Assembly: GCA_964510585.1 (NCBI GenBank)
Contig: CAZECW010000148.1
Location: 1 to 12,132, forward strand
DNA length: 12,132 nucleotides
Source of the DNA: an uncultured archaeon
GTDB taxonomy: Archaea; Asgardarchaeota; Jordiarchaeia; Jordiarchaeales; Jordiarchaeaceae
Reading direction: 5' to 3'
Shown: positions 147-12,132 of the stretch, piece after piece
How the letters are laid out: every line of letters starts with the position of its first letter
Position numbering within the stretch: the first letter of the stretch is position 1
The notes under the pieces: generated by a model
The model's database searches: none
What the model was told of the DNA's origin: nothing
The model's input: only the letters and a program-made list of their open reading frames with translations
Translations under genes and position numbers: made by a program

Positions 147-207
147 TTTGCCAAAAAATATTTCTTTAACGTTTCTAATTGAATTATAAAGGATTTCTAA
201 CTGTTTT

Positions 208-212
208 GGAGG
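208..212 (+). promoter_or_regulatory. Shine-Dalgarno GGAGG
   Basis: GGAGG lies 8 nt before an in-frame TTG at 221, which supports 221 rather than 179 as the start. Confidence 0.7.
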
Positions 213-220
213 AATCTTGG

Positions 221-1192
221 TTGGGTAAAAAGCTTCTGGTTACGGGTATGGATTTTCTTCTGGATTGGGTTAAGCAGCATATAAAGAGTGCGGAAATAGT
301 TTGTACTTCTGATGTTTCTGAGGAGAATCTATGCCAGATGGTTAAGGATGCTGATGGAATACTGTACATGCAGGCTTTGAGTTATCCCATTACTAGGAAA
401 ATTATTGAGTCTGGTAAAAAGTTGAGGTTCATAAGTTCGGCGGGTGTGGGTTATGAACGCATCGACGTTAAGGCTGCCACGGATAATGGGGTAGTGGTAA
501 TGAATATGCCTGTGGGTACAACTGTGTCTGTGGCGGAACACACTATAGCTCTGATACTTGCGTGCGCAAAGAATCTGGTCAAGGCCCACGAAAACGTGGT
601 TAAAGGAGGATGGAGACTTTTAGCTATGGGAGTTGAATTGTGGAATAAGACTCTGGGAATAATTGGTTTTGGCAGAATAGGAAGAGAAGTGGTTAAAAGG
701 ATGCGGGGATTTGAGATGAATATCTTAGTGTACGACCCATACGTGAAGGAGGATGAAATCAAAAATTTGGGGGGCAAAAAAGTGGACTTGGAAACGCTAC
801 TTAAGGAATCAGATGTAGTCTCGATACATTCACCCTTAACCAAAGAAACCGAGGGACTAATAGGCGAGAAGGAACTGGGACTAATGAAGCCAACAGCTAT
901 CATGGTAAATACCGCCAGGGGGGAACTAATAGACGAAGATGCGCTTATTAAGGCGTTAAAGGAAAGGCGGATAAGCTACGCGGGTCTAGATGTTTTTCGA
1001 AATGAACCCATAAACAAGGATAATCCCCTACTCACCTTGGACAATGTGGTTCTGACGCCGCACATGGCGGTTCAAACATTCGACGCGGTAGTGAGAATGA
1101 TGAATCAAAATGGTATCCAAGTCGAAAAAGCTTTAAACGGAATTTATGAAAATGTGGTAAACCCCGAGGTTTTAACGAAAATGAAAAAATAA
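221..1192 (+). CDS. NAD-dependent D-isomer-specific 2-hydroxyacid dehydrogenase (SerA/glyoxylate reductase-like, no ACT domain)
   Basis: Motifs GVGYERID, SVAEH, Rossmann GIIGFGRIG, YDPY, and the catalytic Arg-Glu-His set in NTARG, LDVFRNEP and TPHMA. Start moved from TTG179 to TTG221 because of the SD. Confidence 0.9.
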   Translation: MGKKLLVTGMDFLLDWVKQHIKSAEIVCTSDVSEENLCQMVKDADGILYMQALSYPITRKIIESGKKLRFISSAGVGYERIDVKAATDNGVVVMNMPVGTTVSVAEHTIALILACAKNLVKAHENVVKGGWRLLAMGVELWNKTLGIIGFGRIGREVVKRMRGFEMNILVYDPYVKEDEIKNLGGKKVDLETLLKESDVVSIHSPLTKETEGLIGEKELGLMKPTAIMVNTARGELIDEDALIKALKERRISYAGLDVFRNEPINKDNPLLTLDNVVLTPHMAVQTFDAVVRMMNQNGIQVEKALNGIYENVVNPEVLTKMKK

Positions 1193-1195
1193 TTT

Positions 1196-1201
1196 GGAGG
1201 T
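1196..1201 (+). promoter_or_regulatory. Shine-Dalgarno GGAGGT for iorA
   Basis: GGAGGT lies just upstream of ATG1210, in a 17-bp intergenic gap. Confidence 0.75.
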
Positions 1202-1209
1202 AAAAGCGT

Positions 1210-3129
1210 ATGAGTTTAGAGGTTGGATTGGATGCTCCGGGGAAAAAGGTTCTTTTGATGGGAAACGAAGCTGTGGCCAGAGGGGCACTGGAAGGAAACT
1301 GTCAGTTTGCTGCTTCCTACCCTGGAACACCCGCTTCCGAAATATTAGAGACTATGGCTCGTTTGGCAAAGGATTTTGAAATATACGCTCAGTGGTCAAC
1401 AAATGAGGCGGCTGCTTTCTGGGCTGGAGCTGGAGCCACTTATTGTGGCTTGAGGTCAATGGTTTCGGCGAAACATCATGGTGTAGCGTGGATGACTGAT
1501 CAACTTATCCACATCTCTCACTGGCAAATTGGCAAAGGAGGGCTCGTCATAGTCATTGGAGACGACCCGAAGGGACATAGTTCAGCTAATGAGTACGATT
1601 CCAGAAATTTGGCGTCTAGAGTTTTTGAGATTCCCATTTTGGAGCCCGCGGATCCCCAAGAATCCAAAGAGTTTACTAGAATGGCGTTTGATTTTTCCGA
1701 AAAACTGAAACTTCCCATATATGTGAGGATGACCACCAGAGTGTGTCATGCGAGCGGGGATGTGATTCTGGGAGAGATTCCAAAAGAAAAGAGGGTTCCC
1801 AGCTATTATCCAACATTCTTTGAATTGGGAATGGAAATGCTCATGGCAAAGGGGTGGGTGGATGTATCCTACCTGCATGAAAGATTACACACAAAAAAGC
1901 TAAAAGAAGCTGCTGAGATATCGGAAAACTTTCCAGGCAACAAATTAGAGATGGGTGGAGGTGAGGAGATAGGGATAATTGCGTCTGGGGTTTGCCGCCA
2001 CTATGTAGAAGAGGCTGTAGACAAGCTCGGAGTTAAACCAGCGCTCCTACATTTGGGAATGTCTTTTCCACTACCCAAAGAAAAGGTGTCAAAACTTCTA
2101 AAATCCGTAAATAAAGTGATAGTTTTTGAGGAGACAGACCCAGTTATAGAAACTGAGGTTAGAGCATTGGCAGAGGACGAATCCTTGGGTGTCGAAATCT
2201 TGGGAAAAAGAAATGAGTTTACTCCCATCTCTGGCGAATTGAATCCCCTAGACGTCATGATTGTTCTTTCAAAAGCCTACGGTAAACCTCTCCCCATAAT
2301 ACCAGAAAGGAAGGAACTTAGAGAAATGATTAAGCCCTACGAGGGAATGAGGCGAATAGTTTTGTGCGCCGGCTGCCCCCATAGAGCATCCGCATATGCG
2401 GTGAAGCTAGCGGCCAAAACCTTTAAAGGAGGGTCCTATATTGGGATAGGGGATATTGGTTGCTATGGTATGATGGGGCCTCCGCCTCTAATGGCCTTCA
2501 CTCTAACTAACTGTATGGGGGGAAGCATAGGACTGGCAAACGGGATAGCCAAAACGGGAATAGACCAACCAGTGGTAGCATTCATAGGGGACTCCACCTT
2601 CTACCATGCAGGTATACCCCCTCTGATAAACGCCACCTTCAACAATGCCAAATTCACTACAATCGTCCTAGATAACCAAGTGACTGCATTAACTGGTTTT
2701 CAACCCCACCCTGGATCTGGATTCACCGCTATGGGCGATAAGACTAAGCCAGTGAAAATAGAGGATATAGCAAGGGCATGTGGAATAGAGTTTGTAGAAG
2801 TAGTGGATCCATACAATATCAAAAAGGCGGCTGAAGTAATTAAAGCTGCTTTTGAGCATCCTGGGGCATCCCTTGTGATATGCAGGAGGCTGTGTTCAAC
2901 GGAGGCCCTAAGAAGGAGGAGAAGCGAGGGATTACCGCCACCAAAGCCCTTCATGGTAGACCCAGATTTGTGTAATGGATGCAAAATATGTATAAATGAG
3001 TTTGGTTGCCCAGCAATGATCTGGGATGAGAAAACAAAGAAGGTATCAATAGATGAAACCCTCTGCATAGGTTGTGCGGTCTGCACCCAAGTATGCCCAG
3101 AAAGAGCACCAAAAGCAGTTAAGGAGTGA
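1210..3129 (+). CDS. iorA: Indolepyruvate:ferredoxin oxidoreductase subunit alpha
   Basis: LLMGNEAVARGALE, YPGTPASEI, LCAGCPHR, GDIGCY, TPP-binding IGDSTFYHAG/LDN, and two C-terminal 4Fe-4S motifs (CNGCKIC...CP, CIGCAVCTQVCP). Confidence 0.93.
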   Translation: MSLEVGLDAPGKKVLLMGNEAVARGALEGNCQFAASYPGTPASEILETMARLAKDFEIYAQWSTNEAAAFWAGAGATYCGLRSMVSAKHHGVAWMTDQLIHISHWQIGKGGLVIVIGDDPKGHSSANEYDSRNLASRVFEIPILEPADPQESKEFTRMAFDFSEKLKLPIYVRMTTRVCHASGDVILGEIPKEKRVPSYYPTFFELGMEMLMAKGWVDVSYLHERLHTKKLKEAAEISENFPGNKLEMGGGEEIGIIASGVCRHYVEEAVDKLGVKPALLHLGMSFPLPKEKVSKLLKSVNKVIVFEETDPVIETEVRALAEDESLGVEILGKRNEFTPISGELNPLDVMIVLSKAYGKPLPIIPERKELREMIKPYEGMRRIVLCAGCPHRASAYAVKLAAKTFKGGSYIGIGDIGCYGMMGPPPLMAFTLTNCMGGSIGLANGIAKTGIDQPVVAFIGDSTFYHAGIPPLINATFNNAKFTTIVLDNQVTALTGFQPHPGSGFTAMGDKTKPVKIEDIARACGIEFVEVVDPYNIKKAAEVIKAAFEHPGASLVICRRLCSTEALRRRRSEGLPPPKPFMVDPDLCNGCKICINEFGCPAMIWDEKTKKVSIDETLCIGCAVCTQVCPERAPKAVKE

Positions 3130-3136
3130 AAAGGTA

Positions 3137-3724
3137 ATGAAGAAAAATTTTGATATACTGATAGCGGGAATAGGTGGACAGGGAGGAGTTCTAACTTCCA
3201 GAATAATAGGAGACGCGGCAATTGAGGCAGGTTACCACGTAACCGTAGGCGAAACATTTGGAGCCAGCCAAAGAGGAGGCTCAGTTATCACTCATATTAG
3301 GCTTGGGAAGGAGAGAATTTACGGTCCGCTCATACCCGAGGCGAGTGGTGACGCAGTGATTGGGTTGGAGCCACTTGAATCACTTAAGTGCGCGGTGAAA
3401 TTTCTTAAAACTAACGGGATAATAGTGACCAATGAGCGGCCAGTACTGCCACCGGACAAAAATTATCCCGAACTGGATAAAATATTTGAATCCGCAAGGA
3501 AAATTCCCGCACAACTATTCTCAATTGATAGCATTAAGCTGGCTAAAGAAGCAGGAGACATACTCTCGTCAAACATTGTTATGATAGGCGCAGCTTATGC
3601 GGTAAAGGCGCTCCCCATAGAAGAGGAACATTTGAAGAATTCCATCCGAAGTAAACTCCCCAAAGCAGTCGATTTAAATCTTAAGGCATTTGAATTAGGG
3701 AAAAAGGCGATGGAGAAGAAGTGA
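3137..3724 (+). CDS. iorB: Indolepyruvate:ferredoxin oxidoreductase subunit beta (POR gamma-like)
   Basis: ILIAGIGGQGG, ETFGASQRGGSV, LEPLE, NIVMIGA, NLKAF. Directly follows iorA. ATG3137 is preferred over 3074, which would overlap iorA. Confidence 0.92.
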   Translation: MKKNFDILIAGIGGQGGVLTSRIIGDAAIEAGYHVTVGETFGASQRGGSVITHIRLGKERIYGPLIPEASGDAVIGLEPLESLKCAVKFLKTNGIIVTNERPVLPPDKNYPELDKIFESARKIPAQLFSIDSIKLAKEAGDILSSNIVMIGAAYAVKALPIEEEHLKNSIRSKLPKAVDLNLKAFELGKKAMEKK

Positions 3725-5157
3725 TGTCTGAAGAAAACCGGATTGTCCAGCAACTCACCCCCCTTTTTAAACCCTCGTCTGTTGCCATAATAGGAGCCTC
3801 CTCCACCCCCATGAAGTTCCCAACCTGGGTCACATCCACCGCCCTAAAAAGCGGTTTCCGGGGTAAAATATATCTTGTAAATCCCAGAACCAAAGAAATC
3901 CAAGGAATAAAAACCTACCCCAGCATATTAGACATAAAGGATAACGTGGACCTGGCGGCAATAATAATACCCGCGGAACTAATTCCGGGCGTGATGGAGG
4001 AATGCGTTGAGAAGGGTGTTAAGGCTGCAATCATATTTTCTTCGGGTTTCAGAGAAATAGGGGAAAAGGGAATAAAAAGGGAAGAGGAAATACTCAGAAT
4101 AGCTAGGAGAGGGAACATTAGGCTGGTTGGCCCCAACTGTATGGGAATCTACAGCTCAGAAGTAAACCTCACCCTATCCATAATTTCATTTAAGGAGAAG
4201 GGAGAGATAGCATTCATAACTCAGAGCGGCGGCTACGGCATAGAGATATGCTCCTCGGCTATGTCTAAGGGCATAAATTTTAGCAAGTTCATAAGCGTGG
4301 GCGACAAAATAGACATCCAAGACTATGAGTACCTGGAGTACCTTTACCAAGACCCAGACACCAAAGCAATTATGATGTACATAGAGGGAATAGAGAAGGG
4401 AAGGGAATTCCTAAACGCTGCAAAAAAGGTAACTCGAAAGAAGCCCATATTTGTAATAAAAATTGGAAGAACAATGGAAGGCAGCAGAGCCGCAAGCTCC
4501 CACACTGGCGCACTAGCTGGAAAAGACGCTATATACGACGCAGTTTTCAAGCAGAGCGGAATAATAAGAGCATATGATGTGGAAGAACTCTTCGACTATC
4601 TAAAAGCCTACCTGACTCTACCCCTACCAAAGGGAAACCGCGTGGGACTACTCGTGGGAAGCGGCGGGGTGGGCTGCGCAGCCACAGATAAATGCATAGA
4701 GTTGGGTCTACAGGTTCCAGAAATAAGCGAAGAAAACAAAAAAATGTTAAAAACTATTCTCCCAGAATTCGCATCCGTCAGGAACCCAGTAGACTTCACA
4801 GCATCCGGAGCACAGGGAATATTCACAAACACCCAAGTACTCAAAAAGCTCTTTGCAGACCCAAACATTGACGCCTGGTTTTTCGGAGGCTTCACCAGCT
4901 CATCCATAGCAGAAATAAAAGACATAATAGAACAATTCAGACCAGTCATAGACAAAATAAATTCCAAAGATTTAATGGGCGAACTCAAAGTGCCTCTAGT
5001 TGGATCCATGGATGAAAACGATATAGTTAGACCAATTATGGAAAAAATGTTCGGCGCAGTATTCTACCCAACACCCGAAAGAGCGATCCGAGCGATATCC
5101 GCACTACACAGATACGGAAAATATTTGGAAATGATCAAAAAATGTGTGAACGGTTGA
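3721..5157 (+). CDS. acdA: Acetate/acyl-CoA ligase (ADP-forming) alpha subunit
   Basis: FKPSSVAIIGAS CoA-binding fold, VGPNCMG, AFITQSGG, phospho-His motif SHTGALAG, NPVDFT. GTGATG start overlaps the iorB stop (ATG3724 is the alternative start). Confidence 0.9.
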   Translation: MMSEENRIVQQLTPLFKPSSVAIIGASSTPMKFPTWVTSTALKSGFRGKIYLVNPRTKEIQGIKTYPSILDIKDNVDLAAIIIPAELIPGVMEECVEKGVKAAIIFSSGFREIGEKGIKREEEILRIARRGNIRLVGPNCMGIYSSEVNLTLSIISFKEKGEIAFITQSGGYGIEICSSAMSKGINFSKFISVGDKIDIQDYEYLEYLYQDPDTKAIMMYIEGIEKGREFLNAAKKVTRKKPIFVIKIGRTMEGSRAASSHTGALAGKDAIYDAVFKQSGIIRAYDVEELFDYLKAYLTLPLPKGNRVGLLVGSGGVGCAATDKCIELGLQVPEISEENKKMLKTILPEFASVRNPVDFTASGAQGIFTNTQVLKKLFADPNIDAWFFGGFTSSSIAEIKDIIEQFRPVIDKINSKDLMGELKVPLVGSMDENDIVRPIMEKMFGAVFYPTPERAIRAISALHRYGKYLEMIKKCVNG

Positions 5158-5204: not shown

Positions 5205-6158
5205 CTAGCTTAGGGCACTCATTATTATTCCCGCTAATTCTTCTCTTGGGGGCTGTTTTGCTATTAGTTCTTTTAGTTTTGGCCCTATTTCTTCCGGCTT
5301 CCAGAATCCTGGTGGAGAGCGTTTCACGGGTTCGCTGGATTTCCAGCTGTGCAGCAGCCACATGTTCCCGCCAACCACTCTTATAACTTGGCCGGTTACA
5401 TCTTTAGCCTCGTCGGAAGCTAGGTAAACCACAAGGGGAGCCATAGCTTCGGGACTCAAGACGTCGTATCCATACTTCTTTTCGAAATCCTCCTTAGTTC
5501 CCATCATAGGAGCCAGTGAGGGCGTTGCCTCGGTTGTTAGTCTGGTTCGGGCAACAGGTACTATAACATTGGCTGTTACCCCGTATTTCGCCATTTCTTT
5601 GGCCACTATGAGGGTAAAGGCGGTTATTCCGGCTTTCGCGGCTCCGTAGTTGCTCTGACCTGGATTATATAGTAGTCCAGCGTCGGAGGTGGTGTTTATT
5701 ATTCTTCCTGCTACGGGTTTTCCTTCTTTGGACTGGGCTCTCCAGTAGTTGCAGGCGTGTCTGGTGCAGTTGAATGTTCCCTTGAGGTGAACCCCTATTA
5801 CTGCGTCGAAATCTTCCTCTTCCATGTTGAATATCATTTTGTCTCTAAGGATTCCCGCATTGTTGACCAGTATGTCCAATTTGCCAAAGGTGCTAATGGC
5901 TTGATCAATTATTCTTTTTGCTCCCTGGAAGCTTGTGACGCTCTCATAGTTGGGGGCGGCTTCCCCTCCCATCTTCTTGATTTCGTTTACTACGTCGTCG
6001 GCTGGACCGTGGAACTCGCCTTTTCCATTGTGGCTTCCGCCCATATCGTTTACTATGACTTTTGCTCCGTGTTTTGCTAGAAGTAGGGCTTCTTCTCGTC
6101 CTAAACCTCTTCCAGCGCCAGTAACTATAGCTACTTTACCTTTAAGTGATATTGGCAT
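5205..6158 (-). CDS. Short-chain dehydrogenase/reductase, MFE-2 (3R)-hydroxyacyl-CoA dehydrogenase / PRK07791-like
   Basis: TGAGRGLG, VIVNDMGG, LVNNAGILRD, VHLKGTF, RIINTTSDAG, GQSNYGAAK. SD GGTGA at 6166-6170 (minus strand), 7 nt before the ATG. Confidence 0.88.
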   Translation of the reverse strand: MPISLKGKVAIVTGAGRGLGREEALLLAKHGAKVIVNDMGGSHNGKGEFHGPADDVVNEIKKMGGEAAPNYESVTSFQGAKRIIDQAISTFGKLDILVNNAGILRDKMIFNMEEEDFDAVIGVHLKGTFNCTRHACNYWRAQSKEGKPVAGRIINTTSDAGLLYNPGQSNYGAAKAGITAFTLIVAKEMAKYGVTANVIVPVARTRLTTEATPSLAPMMGTKEDFEKKYGYDVLSPEAMAPLVVYLASDEAKDVTGQVIRVVGGNMWLLHSWKSSEPVKRSPPGFWKPEEIGPKLKELIAKQPPREELAGIIMSALS

Positions 6159-9213: not shown

Positions 9214-10371
9214 TTATCTCTGGAAAATGTGCACAACAATATTATTCCCAAAACCGCCGAAATTGACTGATAATCCTGTTTCGCATTTGGGCACTTGGCG
9301 TTTTCCAGCCTCCCCTCTTAGTTGCCAAGTGATTTCAACCGCCTGAGCCACACCGGTGGCCCCAAGAGGATGACCTCTGGCCTTAAGTCCTCCGCTGGGA
9401 TTTATGGGTAGTTCTCCATCAAGCCAAGTTTTTCCCTCCTCAACGGCTTTGGCTCCCTCTCCCTTCTTAAAGAAACCCACATCCTCTGATTGCACAATCT
9501 CCAGTATGGTGAAGGCGTCATGTAGCTCTGCAAAATCTATGTCCTGCGGTTTGAGCTTAGCCATAGAATATGCCTTTTGAGCAGCCTCCCTCAAAGCTTC
9601 CAAAACAGTTGGGTCCTCACGCTCAGCAACCATCTGAATATCTGTAGCTTGCCCAAACCCCTTAATCAGCACTGGGGTATCACTGTACTCTCTAGCTTTA
9701 TCCGCTGCGCAAAGCACTAAGGAAGCAGCCCCGTCACTCACGGGGCAAACATCGAACAGGCGTAGTGGATCTGCAATAATTGGTGAGGTCAACGCCTTTT
9801 CCAGGGTTATTTCTTTCTGGAAGTGAGCGTAAGGGTTGTGGGCCCCATTTTTGTGGTTTTTAACCGCCACCAATGAGAGCAGCTCTCTCTTAACATTATA
9901 CTTCTTCAAATATAACTGGGCAAGAAGCCCCCCAAGGGAGGGTAAAGTAACACCATACTTGTACTCCGCAGTTGGGTGTGTTAAAGTCGCCACCGAAGAA
10001 CTAACCTTGGGATTGGGTATGGAAGTCATTTTTTCCACACCAACAACCAAAACAAGGTTGGAAACACCAGATGCGATGGCTTGGAAACCTTCCTTTGTGG
10101 CTGAGCCGCCACTCGCCGGACCATTTTCTATTTTGTCTGCGGCTGCAGGTAGCAGATTGAGTCTATCGGCAAGCACACTTGCAATACCAGTCATCCTATT
10201 GAATTCTCCAGAAAACATGTTACCCACATAAACCGCGTCAAAATCACTCTCAGAAGCATTGGCGTCAGAAATCGCCCTGAAACTAGCCTCCACCATAAGA
10301 TCAGTAAGGGACTTGTCTTCAAGCTGCCCAAACCGCGTCATGCCGCAACCAATAATGGCAACACCACGCAT
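9214..10371 (-). CDS. SCP2-type thiolase-fold protein lacking the canonical catalytic cysteines
   Basis: VAIIGCGMTRFG, VGVEKM, PVSDGAASLVL, ELHDAF, NPSGGLKARGHPLGATG. The CxS position reads ENGPAS. ATG10371 lies 8 nt after GGGGG(10380-10384); TTG10386 and ATG10377 are alternative starts. Confidence 0.9.
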   Translation of the reverse strand: MRGVAIIGCGMTRFGQLEDKSLTDLMVEASFRAISDANASESDFDAVYVGNMFSGEFNRMTGIASVLADRLNLLPAAADKIENGPASGGSATKEGFQAIASGVSNLVLVVGVEKMTSIPNPKVSSSVATLTHPTAEYKYGVTLPSLGGLLAQLYLKKYNVKRELLSLVAVKNHKNGAHNPYAHFQKEITLEKALTSPIIADPLRLFDVCPVSDGAASLVLCAADKAREYSDTPVLIKGFGQATDIQMVAEREDPTVLEALREAAQKAYSMAKLKPQDIDFAELHDAFTILEIVQSEDVGFFKKGEGAKAVEEGKTWLDGELPINPSGGLKARGHPLGATGVAQAVEITWQLRGEAGKRQVPKCETGLSVNFGGFGNNIVVHIFQR

Positions 10372-10604: not shown

Positions 10605-11108
10605 CTACCAAATCTTTTTTTCATATTTCAGAGTGCGTTTAATTCTAGATTTTTTTTGCATTTTTGCTAGTTCTTTCTCAAAGTCTTCAATTGATAGGAG
10701 GCTATCCACGCTGTCCTTTAGAGCTTGGGGAATTGGCTGCCTGTAGACGTAGTATTTTCTGACGTCCTGTACGATTCTTTTTGAGCGTTCTGAGAGAATT
10801 GGAGCGTAACGGTAAAGTGCATCATTCTCTTCCTTATCCACAACGAAACTAAGTGTACCGATGCGCTCTTTTCCCCTAGCTTTCTCATCGGGAATGGAGA
10901 AATAATACACAAAAGCGCTCTTCTGTTCCTCTTGAATGGGAATTATGGATTCCCCCTCATCCACATGGTGACTTAAAGCAACCGCCCCAATCATTGTCTT
11001 CAAAGCAATTTTATCAGCAGTCTCCTTTTCGATTCCCTTAAAATAAACACTGGTGGGACCAACATCCTCGTCCACAATGGCCAGACAGATTCCCCTTTTT
11101 TCAAACAA
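10605..11108 (-). CDS. Small uDENN/longin-domain protein (folliculin/SMCR8 N-terminal-like), putative Asgard eukaryotic signature protein
   Basis: N-terminal beta-strand followed by VDEDVGP (the FxxxxGP motif of uDENN domains), and YYFSIPDEKARGKERIGTLSFVV, matching the DxxARGxxR motif of the FLCN/SMCR8 longin domain. Basic C-terminal tail. Recognised by motif recall, not by search. Confidence 0.7.
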   Translation of the reverse strand: MFEKRGICLAIVDEDVGPTSVYFKGIEKETADKIALKTMIGAVALSHHVDEGESIIPIQEEQKSAFVYYFSIPDEKARGKERIGTLSFVVDKEENDALYRYAPILSERSKRIVQDVRKYYVYRQPIPQALKDSVDSLLSIEDFEKELAKMQKKSRIKRTLKYEKKIW

Positions 11109-11239
11109 GGCACCACTTCCGCTTTTCCCTCAAACACAAGCCCAAAGGGAATCAAATATTTTAGAACTTATACAACCAGTAACCTTAATACTTTTGTATA
11201 AACGTAAATATAAACTTGTTGAAAAAACTTACTTTTGAG

Positions 11240-11995
11240 AGCATATACTATAACAAGTCTATTCATAGTGTTAGGATAAACTATAAACACATTTAAAAGG
11301 GTTAACATCCCCTCTGCTTAATCTACGCACTACACATAAGATTAATCATTGTTCTCTAATCTTGAAATATGCGTATTTTCCTTTTGCTACAGTAAAAATA
11401 TCAATTTATGATATGAGTTGAGAGAGAACAAAAATTACTTATTAATAATTGTTGGTAATCCATTAGCTCTGCTTAATTGTTCATCTAAAAAGTTATTAAT
11501 AGTCATAATTGATGCTTCTCACAACTTATTTAGGATTTTTCTCTAAAAAGATTTAAGTTTTTGAATCAAAACGGGCGTAAAACCTTTCTTTTTTGGCTCA
11601 TTTTTGTTTAAGGAGCTTTTTCTTTGCATAAATTGTTCAAAAACTTATCAAAAATATATTTATTTAAGTAGTTACTCAGTTGAGGGTTGCTTTATGCGCG
11701 GATTGCACCTGTGGCAATGTGAACTCTAAGTTTTTACCCTGAATTGGTAAAAACAGGACATTTTGTTCCCATTTCCCAAAAAATGAGAAAAAAAGATTAA
11801 AATTAGAAAAAATAAGGCAAAAAAGTCAATCTACCACAACCTCCACACAAAAAACTACCCAACCGTATAAGTTCTATTATTATCTGGATTTTCGATTACA
11901 GCAGCGAATTAGGTTAAAAACACCAAACAATTTAATTGGATTCTACATCGTCTATTATTGAATTTTATAGTGAAAATACATAATTACGAAAAATT
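11240..11995. other. Long AT-rich gene-free intergenic region
   Basis: No ORF of 60 aa or more in the six-frame track. Many A/T runs; contains short palindromes and repeats. Confidence 0.75.
11730..11754. other. Perfect 9-bp hairpin (possible terminator or protein-binding site)
   Basis: GTTTTTACC-ctgaatt-GGTAAAAAC. Confidence 0.5.
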
Positions 11996-12132
11996 GGGCG
12001 TAAAAAGTTTTTAGTGCAGTTTTGAACCGAAAGATTGGAGTAGTGCTTCAGCACAAAGTAGTAACAGTGATCAAAATGACAGAAGCACCACTCCAATTGG
12101 TCATTCTCACTCTACCCATTTATGCTTTACTA
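11996..12132 (-). repeat. Copy 2 (inverted) of the hairpin-containing repeat; runs to the window edge
   Basis: The reverse complement aligns to 12-146 at ~80%. Internal stem 12097-12082/12049-12034. Confidence 0.93.

Follow-up and report, generated by a model that had tools for sequence, protein, structure and literature searches.

The gene studied here, on the reverse strand of the window (the whole 12,132-nt stretch of DNA analysed), belongs to an ancient and conserved clade, of thiolase fold and archaeal-ACAT/SCP2 type, whose members all lack the nucleophilic cysteine. Genes of this NGPAS family are linked to those for a DUF35 protein and a methylmalonyl-CoA mutase, and DUF35 and mutase also occur fused in a single polypeptide. 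By analogy with known thiolase/DUF35 assemblies, we give a probability of about one half to the reading that the window protein would form, with DUF35 as the tether, the core of a complex with the mutase and there perform, in place of thiolysis, enolate chemistry that does not depend on cysteine.

The reading frame translates into 385 residues without internal stops and likely starts with the ATG at 10371, judging by homologues, which open M-R-x-V-A-I-I-G. Pfam Thiolase_N and Thiolase_C_1 match with 117.5 and 170.3 bits. NCBIfam PRK06064 scores 488.5 bits (cut-off 420), placing the protein in the SCP2/archaeal-ACAT subgroup, while the archaeal acetoacetyl-CoA thiolase equivalog NF053570 gives 431.8 bits, under its cut-off of 600. 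The AlphaFold2 model (pTM 0.90) matches 7YVY, 4YZO and 6ESQ in Foldseek with TM scores of 0.85–0.93. In sequence, the best PDB match is 4YZO (E 2.5e-100); archaeal thiolases range from 1e-90 to 1e-100, as against 2.1e-31 for Ltp2 (6OK1).

In a FastTree phylogeny, NGPAS and ST0096-like sequences form one monophyletic, entirely Cys-less clade (P or S at position 85; support 100), which is sister to mevalonate-type thiolases in this tree built without Ltp2 and Sal sequences. The window protein falls within it and bears each of its marks, N-G-P-A-S, H-D-A-F, G-H-P and N-F-G-G-F-G-N-N. ST0096 of Sulfolobus tokodaii (4YZO, 'thiolase-like protein') is from the same clade and likewise has no Cys at 85 and keeps both histidines, but belongs to a derived sub-branch with Ser in place of Pro at 85, HDMA in place of HDAF and S-M-A-G-Y-G in place of N-F-G-G-F-G. 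At least 575 species-level loci, archaeal and bacterial, match the NGPAS family in a genome collection with a single representative of each species. Several databases label these genes 'acetyl-CoA acetyltransferase', a label that is almost certainly wrong and whose correction matters for annotation already now.

Table 1. Positions of the thiolase-like gene, its active-site loops and other genes of the window.
Feature	Position	Strand	Remarks
Acyl-CoA island context genes	179..5157	+	D-2-hydroxyacid dehydrogenase; indolepyruvate:ferredoxin oxidoreductase alpha and beta; ADP-forming acyl-CoA synthetase alpha
SDR, PRK07791 type, 317 aa	5205..6158	-	Close paralogue of the SDR adjoining the DUF35-mutase pair on contig C211
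Cys-less thiolase-fold protein gene	9214..10371	-	385 aa; stop 9214-9216; Thiolase_N + Thiolase_C_1
C-terminal catalytic loop, N370-F-G-G-F-G-N-N377	9241..9264	-	Cys-free
Second active-site His loop, G333-H334-P335	9367..9375	-	Retained
HDxF loop, HDAF (H284-F287)	9511..9522	-	His kept; Ala common to functional archaeal thiolases
F206-D-V-C-P210 loop	9742..9756	-	Cys209 conserved; pLDDT <50 in model
Pro85 codon at the thiolase nucleophile-Cys position	10117..10119	-	Loop N83-G84-P85-A86-S87-G88, invariant in clade

The only real residue loss in the window protein is that of Cys85 to proline. In a HMMER alignment, Pro85 lies opposite the Cys of the A-C-A-S-G loop of 6ESQ, the M. thermolithotrophicus thiolase, and it is aligned with the nucleophile Cys of both 6ESQ and 7YVY. 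A competent archaeal acetoacetyl-CoA thiolase requires this Cys of the CxS loop, which the window protein lacks; the HDxF motif, as the archaeal thiolase motif is given (PMC12960953), and the GHx motif are both present, as HDAF (284–287) and GHP (333–335). Translation puts the Pro codon and HDAF exactly where the preliminary description had placed them, and the two histidines it reported as retained, H284 and H334, are there. Its statement that both catalytic cysteines are missing counts one too many, since the Cys85-bearing thiolase of the same genome (encoded in an HMGCS-thiolase-DUF35 operon on contig C20) and the P. furiosus thiolase 7YVY also read HDAF. Both of these equally lack the C-terminal Cys, so that the Cys-free C-terminal loop is not the loss it had been taken for. 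What does set this loop apart is F371, F374, N376 and N377, which are invariant in the Cys-less clade and rare among its Cys-bearing relatives.

NGPAS is found in 121 of the 121 closest database homologues (61–96% identity) and at 79 of 80 genome loci; hence, the exchange of Cys85 for Pro reflects neither chance nor decay. HDAF occurs in the same 121 homologues and at 78 of the 80 loci, with HNAF and HNPF as the two exceptions. Position 85 is Pro in all 197 clade members compared, a set that spans archaea and bacteria at ~55% overall identity, and conservation of H284, D285, H334, N324 and the whole remodelled C-terminal loop is 95% or higher among these sequences. Strong purifying selection on the window gene is supported. 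Comparison of the 197 sequences revealed no new acid/base residue among the clade-specific invariant positions.

Pro85 removes the thiol nucleophile and therefore rules out thiolysis or Claisen condensation by way of an acyl-enzyme. In the textbook thiolase structure, a proline at this position also deletes one backbone NH of oxyanion hole 2. The two active-site histidines of SCP2-type thiolases polarise the thioester and stabilise the acyl-CoA enolate. Because the protein cannot form a Cys acyl-enzyme, a non-thiolase activity or a scaffolding role, as first suggested from the sequence, is a reasonable inference.

A dedicated short DUF35 gene lies directly downstream of the NGPAS gene at 58 of the 80 related loci, in archaea and bacteria. 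Within the window there is none; the thiolase-like gene has a convergent P-type ATPase gene downstream and a longin-like gene upstream. The earlier observation that an adjacent DUF35 gene is missing is thus correct as far as the window goes, but an orthologue exists elsewhere in the genome, on contig C211 (C211:2569-3000), 5 nt upstream of a methylmalonyl-CoA mutase gene. This non-adjacent gene is the best tblastn match (1e-19 to 1e-24; runner-up about 1e-10), reaches 118 bits with an HMM made from nothing but the 58 adjacent DUF35s (next paralogue, 83 bits), and has all four zinc-ribbon cysteines, which are invariant. In a same-genus genome (G065), C211, the window and a further contig, C129, align within one 26-kb stretch of contig C21, and this synteny places the DUF35-mutase pair ~21 kb from the thiolase-like gene. 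The cognate DUF35 of DUF35-dependent thiolase-fold complexes is therefore present as a gene, and a dedicated short zinc-ribbon/OB DUF35 is the predicted working partner of the window protein. DUF35 is a known adaptor (PMC12329534; PMC12960953).

In the genus of the window, the DUF35 gene has been separated from the thiolase-like gene but is still joined to that of the mutase large subunit. In all five genomes where DUF35 is detached from the thiolase-like gene, the mutase gene follows it. The order NGPAS gene, DUF35, mutase is found in other Asgard and archaeal lineages, with the mutase gene after DUF35 in seven loci plus Helarchaeota loci. In the sister family, the coordinates of the thiolase-like and mutase genes leave ~450 bp between them on the same strand, a DUF35-sized gap in which no DUF35 was called. 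DUF35::mutase fusions of 684–697 residues are encoded on one Freyarchaeota chromosome and occur in three further protein clusters, drawn from Logan, JGI, and JGI/Logan/nr. Moreover, the mutase is present in 15 of 15 NGPAS carriers among 101 Asgard genomes, and the single sister-family genome without an NGPAS protein has no mutase either.

The best PDB match of the DUF35-linked mutase is HcmA (4R3U). Aligned to 1REQ, 2XIJ and 4R3U, the C211 enzyme shows the methylmalonyl-CoA-type residues R-Q-Y, V-A-R-G-T-Y and V-A-F-D. It has the equivalents of Tyr89 and Arg207, the substrate-carboxylate residues of methylmalonyl-CoA mutase, and lacks the Ile/Asp pair of HcmA. We therefore rejected a 2-hydroxyisobutyryl-CoA mutase, since the specificity positions are of the methylmalonyl-CoA type despite the best match. 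A search for methylmalonyl-CoA epimerase returned VOC-family matches of 78 and 58 bits, under the cut-off of 115.

The mutase link is lineage-specific, because NGPAS-DUF35 pairs in bacteria, Hadarchaeia and Bathyarchaeia have no adjoining mutase gene. Beside these pairs lies a gene for a conserved 230-residue protein, GNAT-like by Atlas features and with no Pfam match. As a partner in the present organism it was rejected, since neither the window genome nor the Hel and Loki loci have it. The operons of the mutase-free pairs contain a xanthine-dehydrogenase-family enzyme, AllF/G/H homologues, a PF04199 cyclase and a nucleobase permease, and the substrate of NGPAS proteins may differ between lineages.

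The closest known counterpart is the archaeal thiolase/DUF35/HMG-CoA synthase complex. The window protein and the thiolase of that complex have the same fold, belong to the same subfamily (42–46% identity, TM 0.88–0.93 in Foldseek, PRK06064) and both show HDxF and GHP. In both cases, too, the zinc-ribbon/OB DUF35 is a separate protein and there is genetic linkage with one further acyl-CoA enzyme. The window protein differs in having Pro for Cys85, and in that this further enzyme is a B12-dependent methylmalonyl-CoA mutase where the known complex has HMG-CoA synthase; in bacteria a GNAT-like protein takes its place. No HMG-CoA synthase gene lies in the window; the real mevalonate operon of this genome is the one on C20.

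On this model, the thiolase-like protein, DUF35 and the mutase would form an analogous complex. With the thiol nucleophile gone and the acyl-enzyme route closed by Pro85, the retained H284 and H334 would polarise the thioester and stabilise an acyl-CoA enolate, and the thiolase-like dimer would act on the substrate or product of the mutase by Cys-independent enolate chemistry. The reaction we favour would be decarboxylation of methylmalonyl-CoA to propionyl-CoA; epimerisation, or mere holding of the CoA ester, are alternatives. Ketosynthase variants with Gln for Cys decarboxylate malonyl units, and the Cys-free thiolase-fold active sites of the CLF/KS-Q decarboxylases, which act on malonyl thioesters, may offer a parallel. 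In E. coli, Sbm and YgfG are a methylmalonyl-CoA mutase and a crotonase-type methylmalonyl-CoA decarboxylase. The same pathway logic, a mutase feeding a biotin-independent decarboxylase, might apply here; the window protein is not homologous to YgfG, and this resemblance is a functional conjecture. Among Cys-less thiolase-fold proteins, TbSLP decarboxylates malonyl-CoA weakly (kcat 0.005 per s) and CtSal has no such activity (PMC12329534).

Carboxyltransferase distribution bears on this proposal suggestively at most. A PF01039 carboxyltransferase was found neither in the window genome nor in five other carriers, all of which have mutases, and across the 101 Asgard genomes PF01039 is absent from 13 of 15 NGPAS carriers as against 31 of 86 non-carriers. 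Whole Asgard families are without PF01039, however, and at least 15 mutase-bearing genomes have neither NGPAS protein nor carboxyltransferase, which renders the argument from a 'missing decarboxylase' weak and confounded by phylogeny.

We consider it rather unlikely, though worth weighing, that the Cys-less dimer and DUF35 have no chemistry of their own and organise or regulate an acyl-CoA enzyme that varies between lineages: in Asgard archaea the mutase, in bacteria the GNAT-like protein. The nucleophile is gone with no evident catalytic replacement, the same NGPAS-DUF35 pair occurs with two different partner genes, and the adaptor role of DUF35 is established (PMC12329534; PMC12960953). Such a scaffold might hold the CoA moiety, by analogy with the shared CoA site of the thiolase/HMGCS/DUF35 complex. 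The conservation of H284, D285, H334, N324 and the C-terminal loop, however, amounts to a tighter constraint on the pocket than one would expect for a pure scaffold.

A retro-aldolase acting on 3-hydroxyacyl-CoA in the manner of Ltp2 or Sal is improbable. Ltp2-ChsH2(DUF35), Sal-Shy(DUF35) and TbSLP are, like the window protein, Cys-less, of thiolase fold and associated with DUF35, and in the genus of the window SDR genes are found repeatedly close to the thiolase-like gene as well as to the DUF35-mutase pair. The aldolase analogy drawn in the preliminary description nevertheless breaks down at the catalytic residues. In Ltp2 these are YDHF (Tyr294) and a general-acid Tyr344, and in Sal and TbSLP YDC(Y/F), namely YDCY and YDCF (PMC12329534), whereas the window protein has His284 in place of the catalytic Tyr (Tyr294, or Tyr302 of Sal) and Ala286 at the position of Cys304 (Sal) or His296 (Ltp2). 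Tyr344 lies 50 residues after Tyr294 and, by the same spacing from H284, would correspond to the retained H334 of GHP. Ltp2s, Sals, SLPs and SCP2-thiolases are reported to form distinct clades (PMC12329534), and the present clade is sister to mevalonate-type thiolases in the tree described above. A steroid-catabolic context is absent, and the DUF35 of the steroid aldolases is fused to a hydratase whereas that of NGPAS proteins is free or mutase-fused.

It is similarly doubtful that the protein is the non-catalytic half of a heteromeric, KS/CLF-like thiolase, paired with a Cys-bearing thiolase encoded nearby. Candidates exist: in 11 Asgard loci a classical R-Q-C-A-S-type thiolase gene lies upstream of the NGPAS gene at a distance of 1.3–7.3 kb, which stays within 4.7 kb in 9 of them, another lies directly upstream at a sister-order locus (L040), and contig C129, part of the same island, encodes a Cys-bearing SCP2-type thiolase without a DUF35 of its own. 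These neighbours, however, are of a different, distant class, no second thiolase gene is found within 8 kb at 68 of the 80 loci, and the bacterial modules have none. Ordinary thiolase chemistry with another nucleophile, such as the nearly clade-invariant Cys209 of FDVCP raised in the preliminary description, is highly improbable: the D-C-[CSA]-P loop is by alignment a family-wide feature that includes Cys85-bearing thiolases, so that Cys209 is presumably no substitute, one clade member reads D-C-S-P, the loop is flexible in the AlphaFold2 model, and the oxyanion-hole NH is lost as well through Pro85.

We found no functional study of the NGPAS family in the open-access literature, whether on 4YZO/ST0096, 7YVY or DUF35 with the mutase. 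As a more speculative extension, which we think unlikely in its entirety, the NGPAS protein, DUF35 and the mutase might make up an undescribed metabolon in which the Cys-less enzyme is a biotin-independent methylmalonyl-CoA decarboxylase (or an epimerase) fed directly by the B12 mutase, with the GNAT-paired core serving anaerobic nucleobase-type degradation in bacteria. If true, this would give Asgard archaea without a carboxyltransferase a route from succinyl-CoA to propionyl-CoA.

A picture is emerging of thiolase/DUF35 assemblies as a versatile platform that includes the mevalonate complex, steroid aldolases, benzoylsuccinyl-CoA thiolase and Friedel-Crafts acylases. The NGPAS family would add a widespread branch in which the nucleophile has been given up, the enolate-stabilising histidines are kept and the adaptor gene is tied to a B12 mutase. 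Defining its reaction would explain the orphan crystal structure 4YZO and supply a missing piece of acyl-CoA metabolism in subsurface archaea, the Asgard lineages among them.

The product of the thiolase-like gene has Pfam Thiolase_N and Thiolase_C_1 domains and belongs to NCBIfam PRK06064 ('thiolase domain-containing protein'; 488.5 bits, cut-off 420); its score for the M. thermolithotrophicus acetyl-CoA acetyltransferase equivalog (431.8) falls short of that family's cut-off (600). By sequence, its best solved relative is ST0096 of S. tokodaii (4YZO; E 2.5e-100); other top matches are the P. furiosus thiolase 7YVY and 6ESQ, the thiolase component of the M. thermolithotrophicus thiolase/HMG-CoA synthase (HMGCS)/DUF35 complex. 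An AlphaFold2 model (pTM 0.90) superimposes on all three with TM 0.85–0.93, and places residues 85–87 at the strand-to-helix elbow where thiolases bear their nucleophile.

The Pro codon reported in the preliminary description encodes Pro85, which in alignments takes the position of the nucleophile Cys in 6ESQ and 7YVY, within the N-G-P-A-S loop after which we name the protein. The HDAF motif lies exactly where it had been placed, both His residues (HDAF and GHP) are kept and the C-terminal loop, NFGGFGNN, has no Cys. The further claim that both catalytic cysteines are missing was overstated. The thiolase of the genome's own mevalonate operon (contig C20: HMGCS, thiolase, DUF35 and a UbiD-type decarboxylase) retains its Cys (E-E-G-C-G-S), yet has HDAF and no C-terminal Cys, as does 7YVY; the archaeal thiolase motif has been given as HDxF (PMC12960953). 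Hence, Cys85-to-Pro is the only genuine loss, HDAF not being one. Nor is the Cys-less state due to decay, since NGPAS is found in all 121 nearest database homologues (61–96% identity), each of which also has HDAF, and in 79 of the 80 best genome loci. By alignment, the Cys of F-D-V-C-P is unlikely to be a replacement nucleophile: it sits in a D-(C/x)-(C/S)-P loop that is present in Cys85-bearing thiolases too. The genome, that of an Asgard archaeon, encodes 24 SCP2-type thiolase paralogues and ~20 DUF35 genes.

In a FastTree phylogeny of 169 sequences (50%-cluster representatives, own paralogues and clade members), the NGPAS protein falls in a clade with support 100, all members of which have Pro or Ser, not Cys, at position 85 and keep HD(A/M)F and GHP. 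ST0096-like sequences (N-T-S-G-S, HDM-) form a derived sub-branch, giving the clade a deposited structure. The clade is monophyletic, and its sister group, with support 86, is the HDAF-type, HMGCS-associated thiolases of the mevalonate pathway. Compared with 96 Cys-bearing relatives, clade-specific invariants are G84, P85, S90, K93, L143, L290, S295, F371, F374, N376 and N377, and none of them adds a Tyr, Glu, Cys or Lys to the catalytic loops; those common to both groups include E113, H284, D285, F287, N324 and G333-H334-P335. In a collection of one genome per species, tblastn confirmed at least 575 relatives. The best 80 of these come from Asgard lineages (Jord-, Frey-, Prometh-, Hel-, Hermod-, Hod- and Thorarchaeota), Hadarchaeia, Methanoperedens, Bathyarchaeia and Archaeoglobi and, at 55–60% identity, from bacteria (Chloroflexota, Cloacimonadota, Bipolaricaulota, Thermotogae and others). 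Relatives at 86–96% identity are labelled Jordarchaeaceae, Jordarchaeia and Freyarchaeota, and 15 of 101 sampled Asgard genomes encode the protein.

At 58 of the 80 best loci, a gene for a 109–122-aa DUF35 protein (zinc ribbon and OB fold, four invariant Cys) starts no more than a few bases from the NGPAS stop codon. Absence of an adjacent DUF35 had been described for the window; in this lineage a convergent P-type ATPase does take its place, with the same synteny in a relative, but an orthologue of the partner lies on contig C211. It is the best tblastn match of three partner DUF35s (1e-19 to 1e-24; next ~1e-10) and tops its genome with an HMM built from only the 58 adjacent DUF35s (118 versus 83 bits). 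A 563-aa large subunit of a B12-dependent acyl-CoA mutase starts 5 nt downstream. Since a single contig of the same-genus genome G065 aligns, in order, with C211, C129 and the window, the three form one acyl-CoA island in which the DUF35 gene, ~21 kb away, is relocated rather than absent. The C211 segment holds the mutase, DUF35, an SDR and two CoA-transferase subunits; on that of C129, a Cys-bearing thiolase is followed in the list by a further two CoA-transferase subunits, an AMP-forming acyl-CoA synthetase and an NMO-type reductase.

The two SDR genes of the island share a nucleotide-similar stretch of 580–594 bp, and each cross-matches the other's G065 counterpart (~86% identity); one is near the thiolase-like gene, the other beside DUF35-mutase. 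Freyarchaeota have a single such SDR between the two. Folliculin/longin is matched weakly just upstream of the thiolase-like gene; eukaryote-like trafficking domains of this kind have been described in Asgard archaea. The window is the whole of contig C148, and the inverted repeat at the contig ends may reflect points where the assembly broke, not a mobile element, because homologous G065 DNA runs on past both ends.

Features of the window and of contig C211 (locus L037), and loci with the GNAT-like operon
Feature	Position	Strand	Remarks
Thiolase-like gene	9214-10371	-	Uninterrupted ORF, 385 aa
Pro85 codon	10117-10119		
HDAF motif	9511-9522		
PRK07791-type SDR	5205-6158	-	
167-aa protein	10605-11108	-	Directly upstream of thiolase-like gene; weak Folliculin/longin match, 27.3 bits (cut-off 23.3)
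AT-rich region	11100-12132		~31-36% G+C (~45% elsewhere)
ORF, 61 aa	11053-11238		Sole ORF >=60 aa touching AT-rich region
Inverted repeat	13-78, 12066-12131		66 nt, 80% complementary
DUF35 orthologue	C211 2569-3000	-	tblastn and HMM best match
PRK07791-type SDR	C211 3290-4240	-	
Small ORF	C211 306-698	+	Weak SCP2 sterol-carrier match (24.7 bits); convergent to mutase gene
GNAT-like operon			Bacterial L076, L083, L100, L101, L106, L115 and others; L041, L063 (Hadarchaeia); L049 (Bathyarchaeia-like)

The link to the mutase recurs. NGPAS, DUF35 and mutase genes are contiguous in Helarchaeota, Hodarchaeota, Promethearchaeota, Methanoperedens and a 'Thermoproteota' MAG (72% identity). In three sister-family genomes, coordinates put the NGPAS and mutase genes on one strand with ~450 bp between them, enough to accommodate a DUF35 gene. 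Where DUF35 is detached, in five genomes, the single strong match is followed by the mutase in all five. Freyarchaeota carry both as one polypeptide (DUF35 residues 7–126, a 12-residue acidic junction, mutase from residue 139), a fusion found in one complete chromosome and three more protein clusters from independent sources. The mutase is present in all 15 Asgard carriers among the 101 genomes, and in the one sister-family genome that has no NGPAS protein it is missing too. Specificity positions of the C211 mutase are of methylmalonyl-CoA type; its top PDB match is nevertheless HcmA.

To form the acyl-enzyme, thiolases need a Cys thiolate; the same residue contributes its backbone NH to oxyanion hole 2. 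Oxyanion hole 1, which stabilizes the thioester enolate, is formed in SCP2-type enzymes by two His. Pro85 removes both thiolate and NH while the His pair is invariant, probably limiting chemistry to enolate-only steps: decarboxylation of malonyl-type CoA esters, epimerization or aldol/retro-aldol reactions. With mutase joined to DUF35, methylmalonyl- or succinyl-CoA would be the likely substrate, and we favour, as a conjecture, decarboxylation to propionyl-CoA. A PF01039 carboxyltransferase was found neither in this genome nor in five other Asgard carriers, all with methylmalonyl-CoA-mutase-type genes, which we counted towards this reading; it stays a conjecture because at least 15 mutase-bearing Asgard genomes of the 101 lack both PF01039 and the NGPAS protein. 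TbSLP, which decarboxylates malonyl-CoA weakly, offers a precedent (PMC12329534). The alternative to enolate-only reactions is a thiolase-like protein without any chemistry. The previously proposed analogy with Ltp2-type aldolases is weak, because none of the Ltp2 and Sal catalytic residues (a Tyr replacing the first His; Tyr344 or Cys304 as acid; PMC12329534) is present.

Six clusters of the same genome (contigs C139, C60, C38, C28, C87 and C27) have tandem pairs of Cys-less thiolase-like genes, accompanied by one or two genes for DUF35 proteins; many of the thiolase-like proteins carry Y-(D/N/E)-x-F and N-P in place of HDxF and GHP, indicating Ltp2/Sal-like active sites in an archaeon. The C28 cluster adjoins a third mutase paralogue.

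A search of open-access papers found no functional study of the NGPAS/ST0096 family. Lacking the defining nucleophile, the NGPAS protein is set apart from thiolases, although it descends from the archaeal thiolase/DUF35/HMGCS system and would work like it. The NGPAS–DUF35 pair of bacteria, Hadarchaeia and Bathyarchaeia is accompanied by a 230-aa protein, GNAT-like by Atlas features, with no Pfam match and absent from this genome. The same operons encode a three-subunit xanthine-dehydrogenase-family Mo enzyme, AllF/AllG/AllH homologues, a PF04199 cyclase and an NCS2 permease. From these two contexts, mutase and GNAT-like operon, the NGPAS–DUF35 core looks like a module joined to different acyl-CoA enzymes, and the GNAT-like operon, which is conserved, may encode a hitherto undescribed pathway that acts anaerobically on a nucleobase-like compound.
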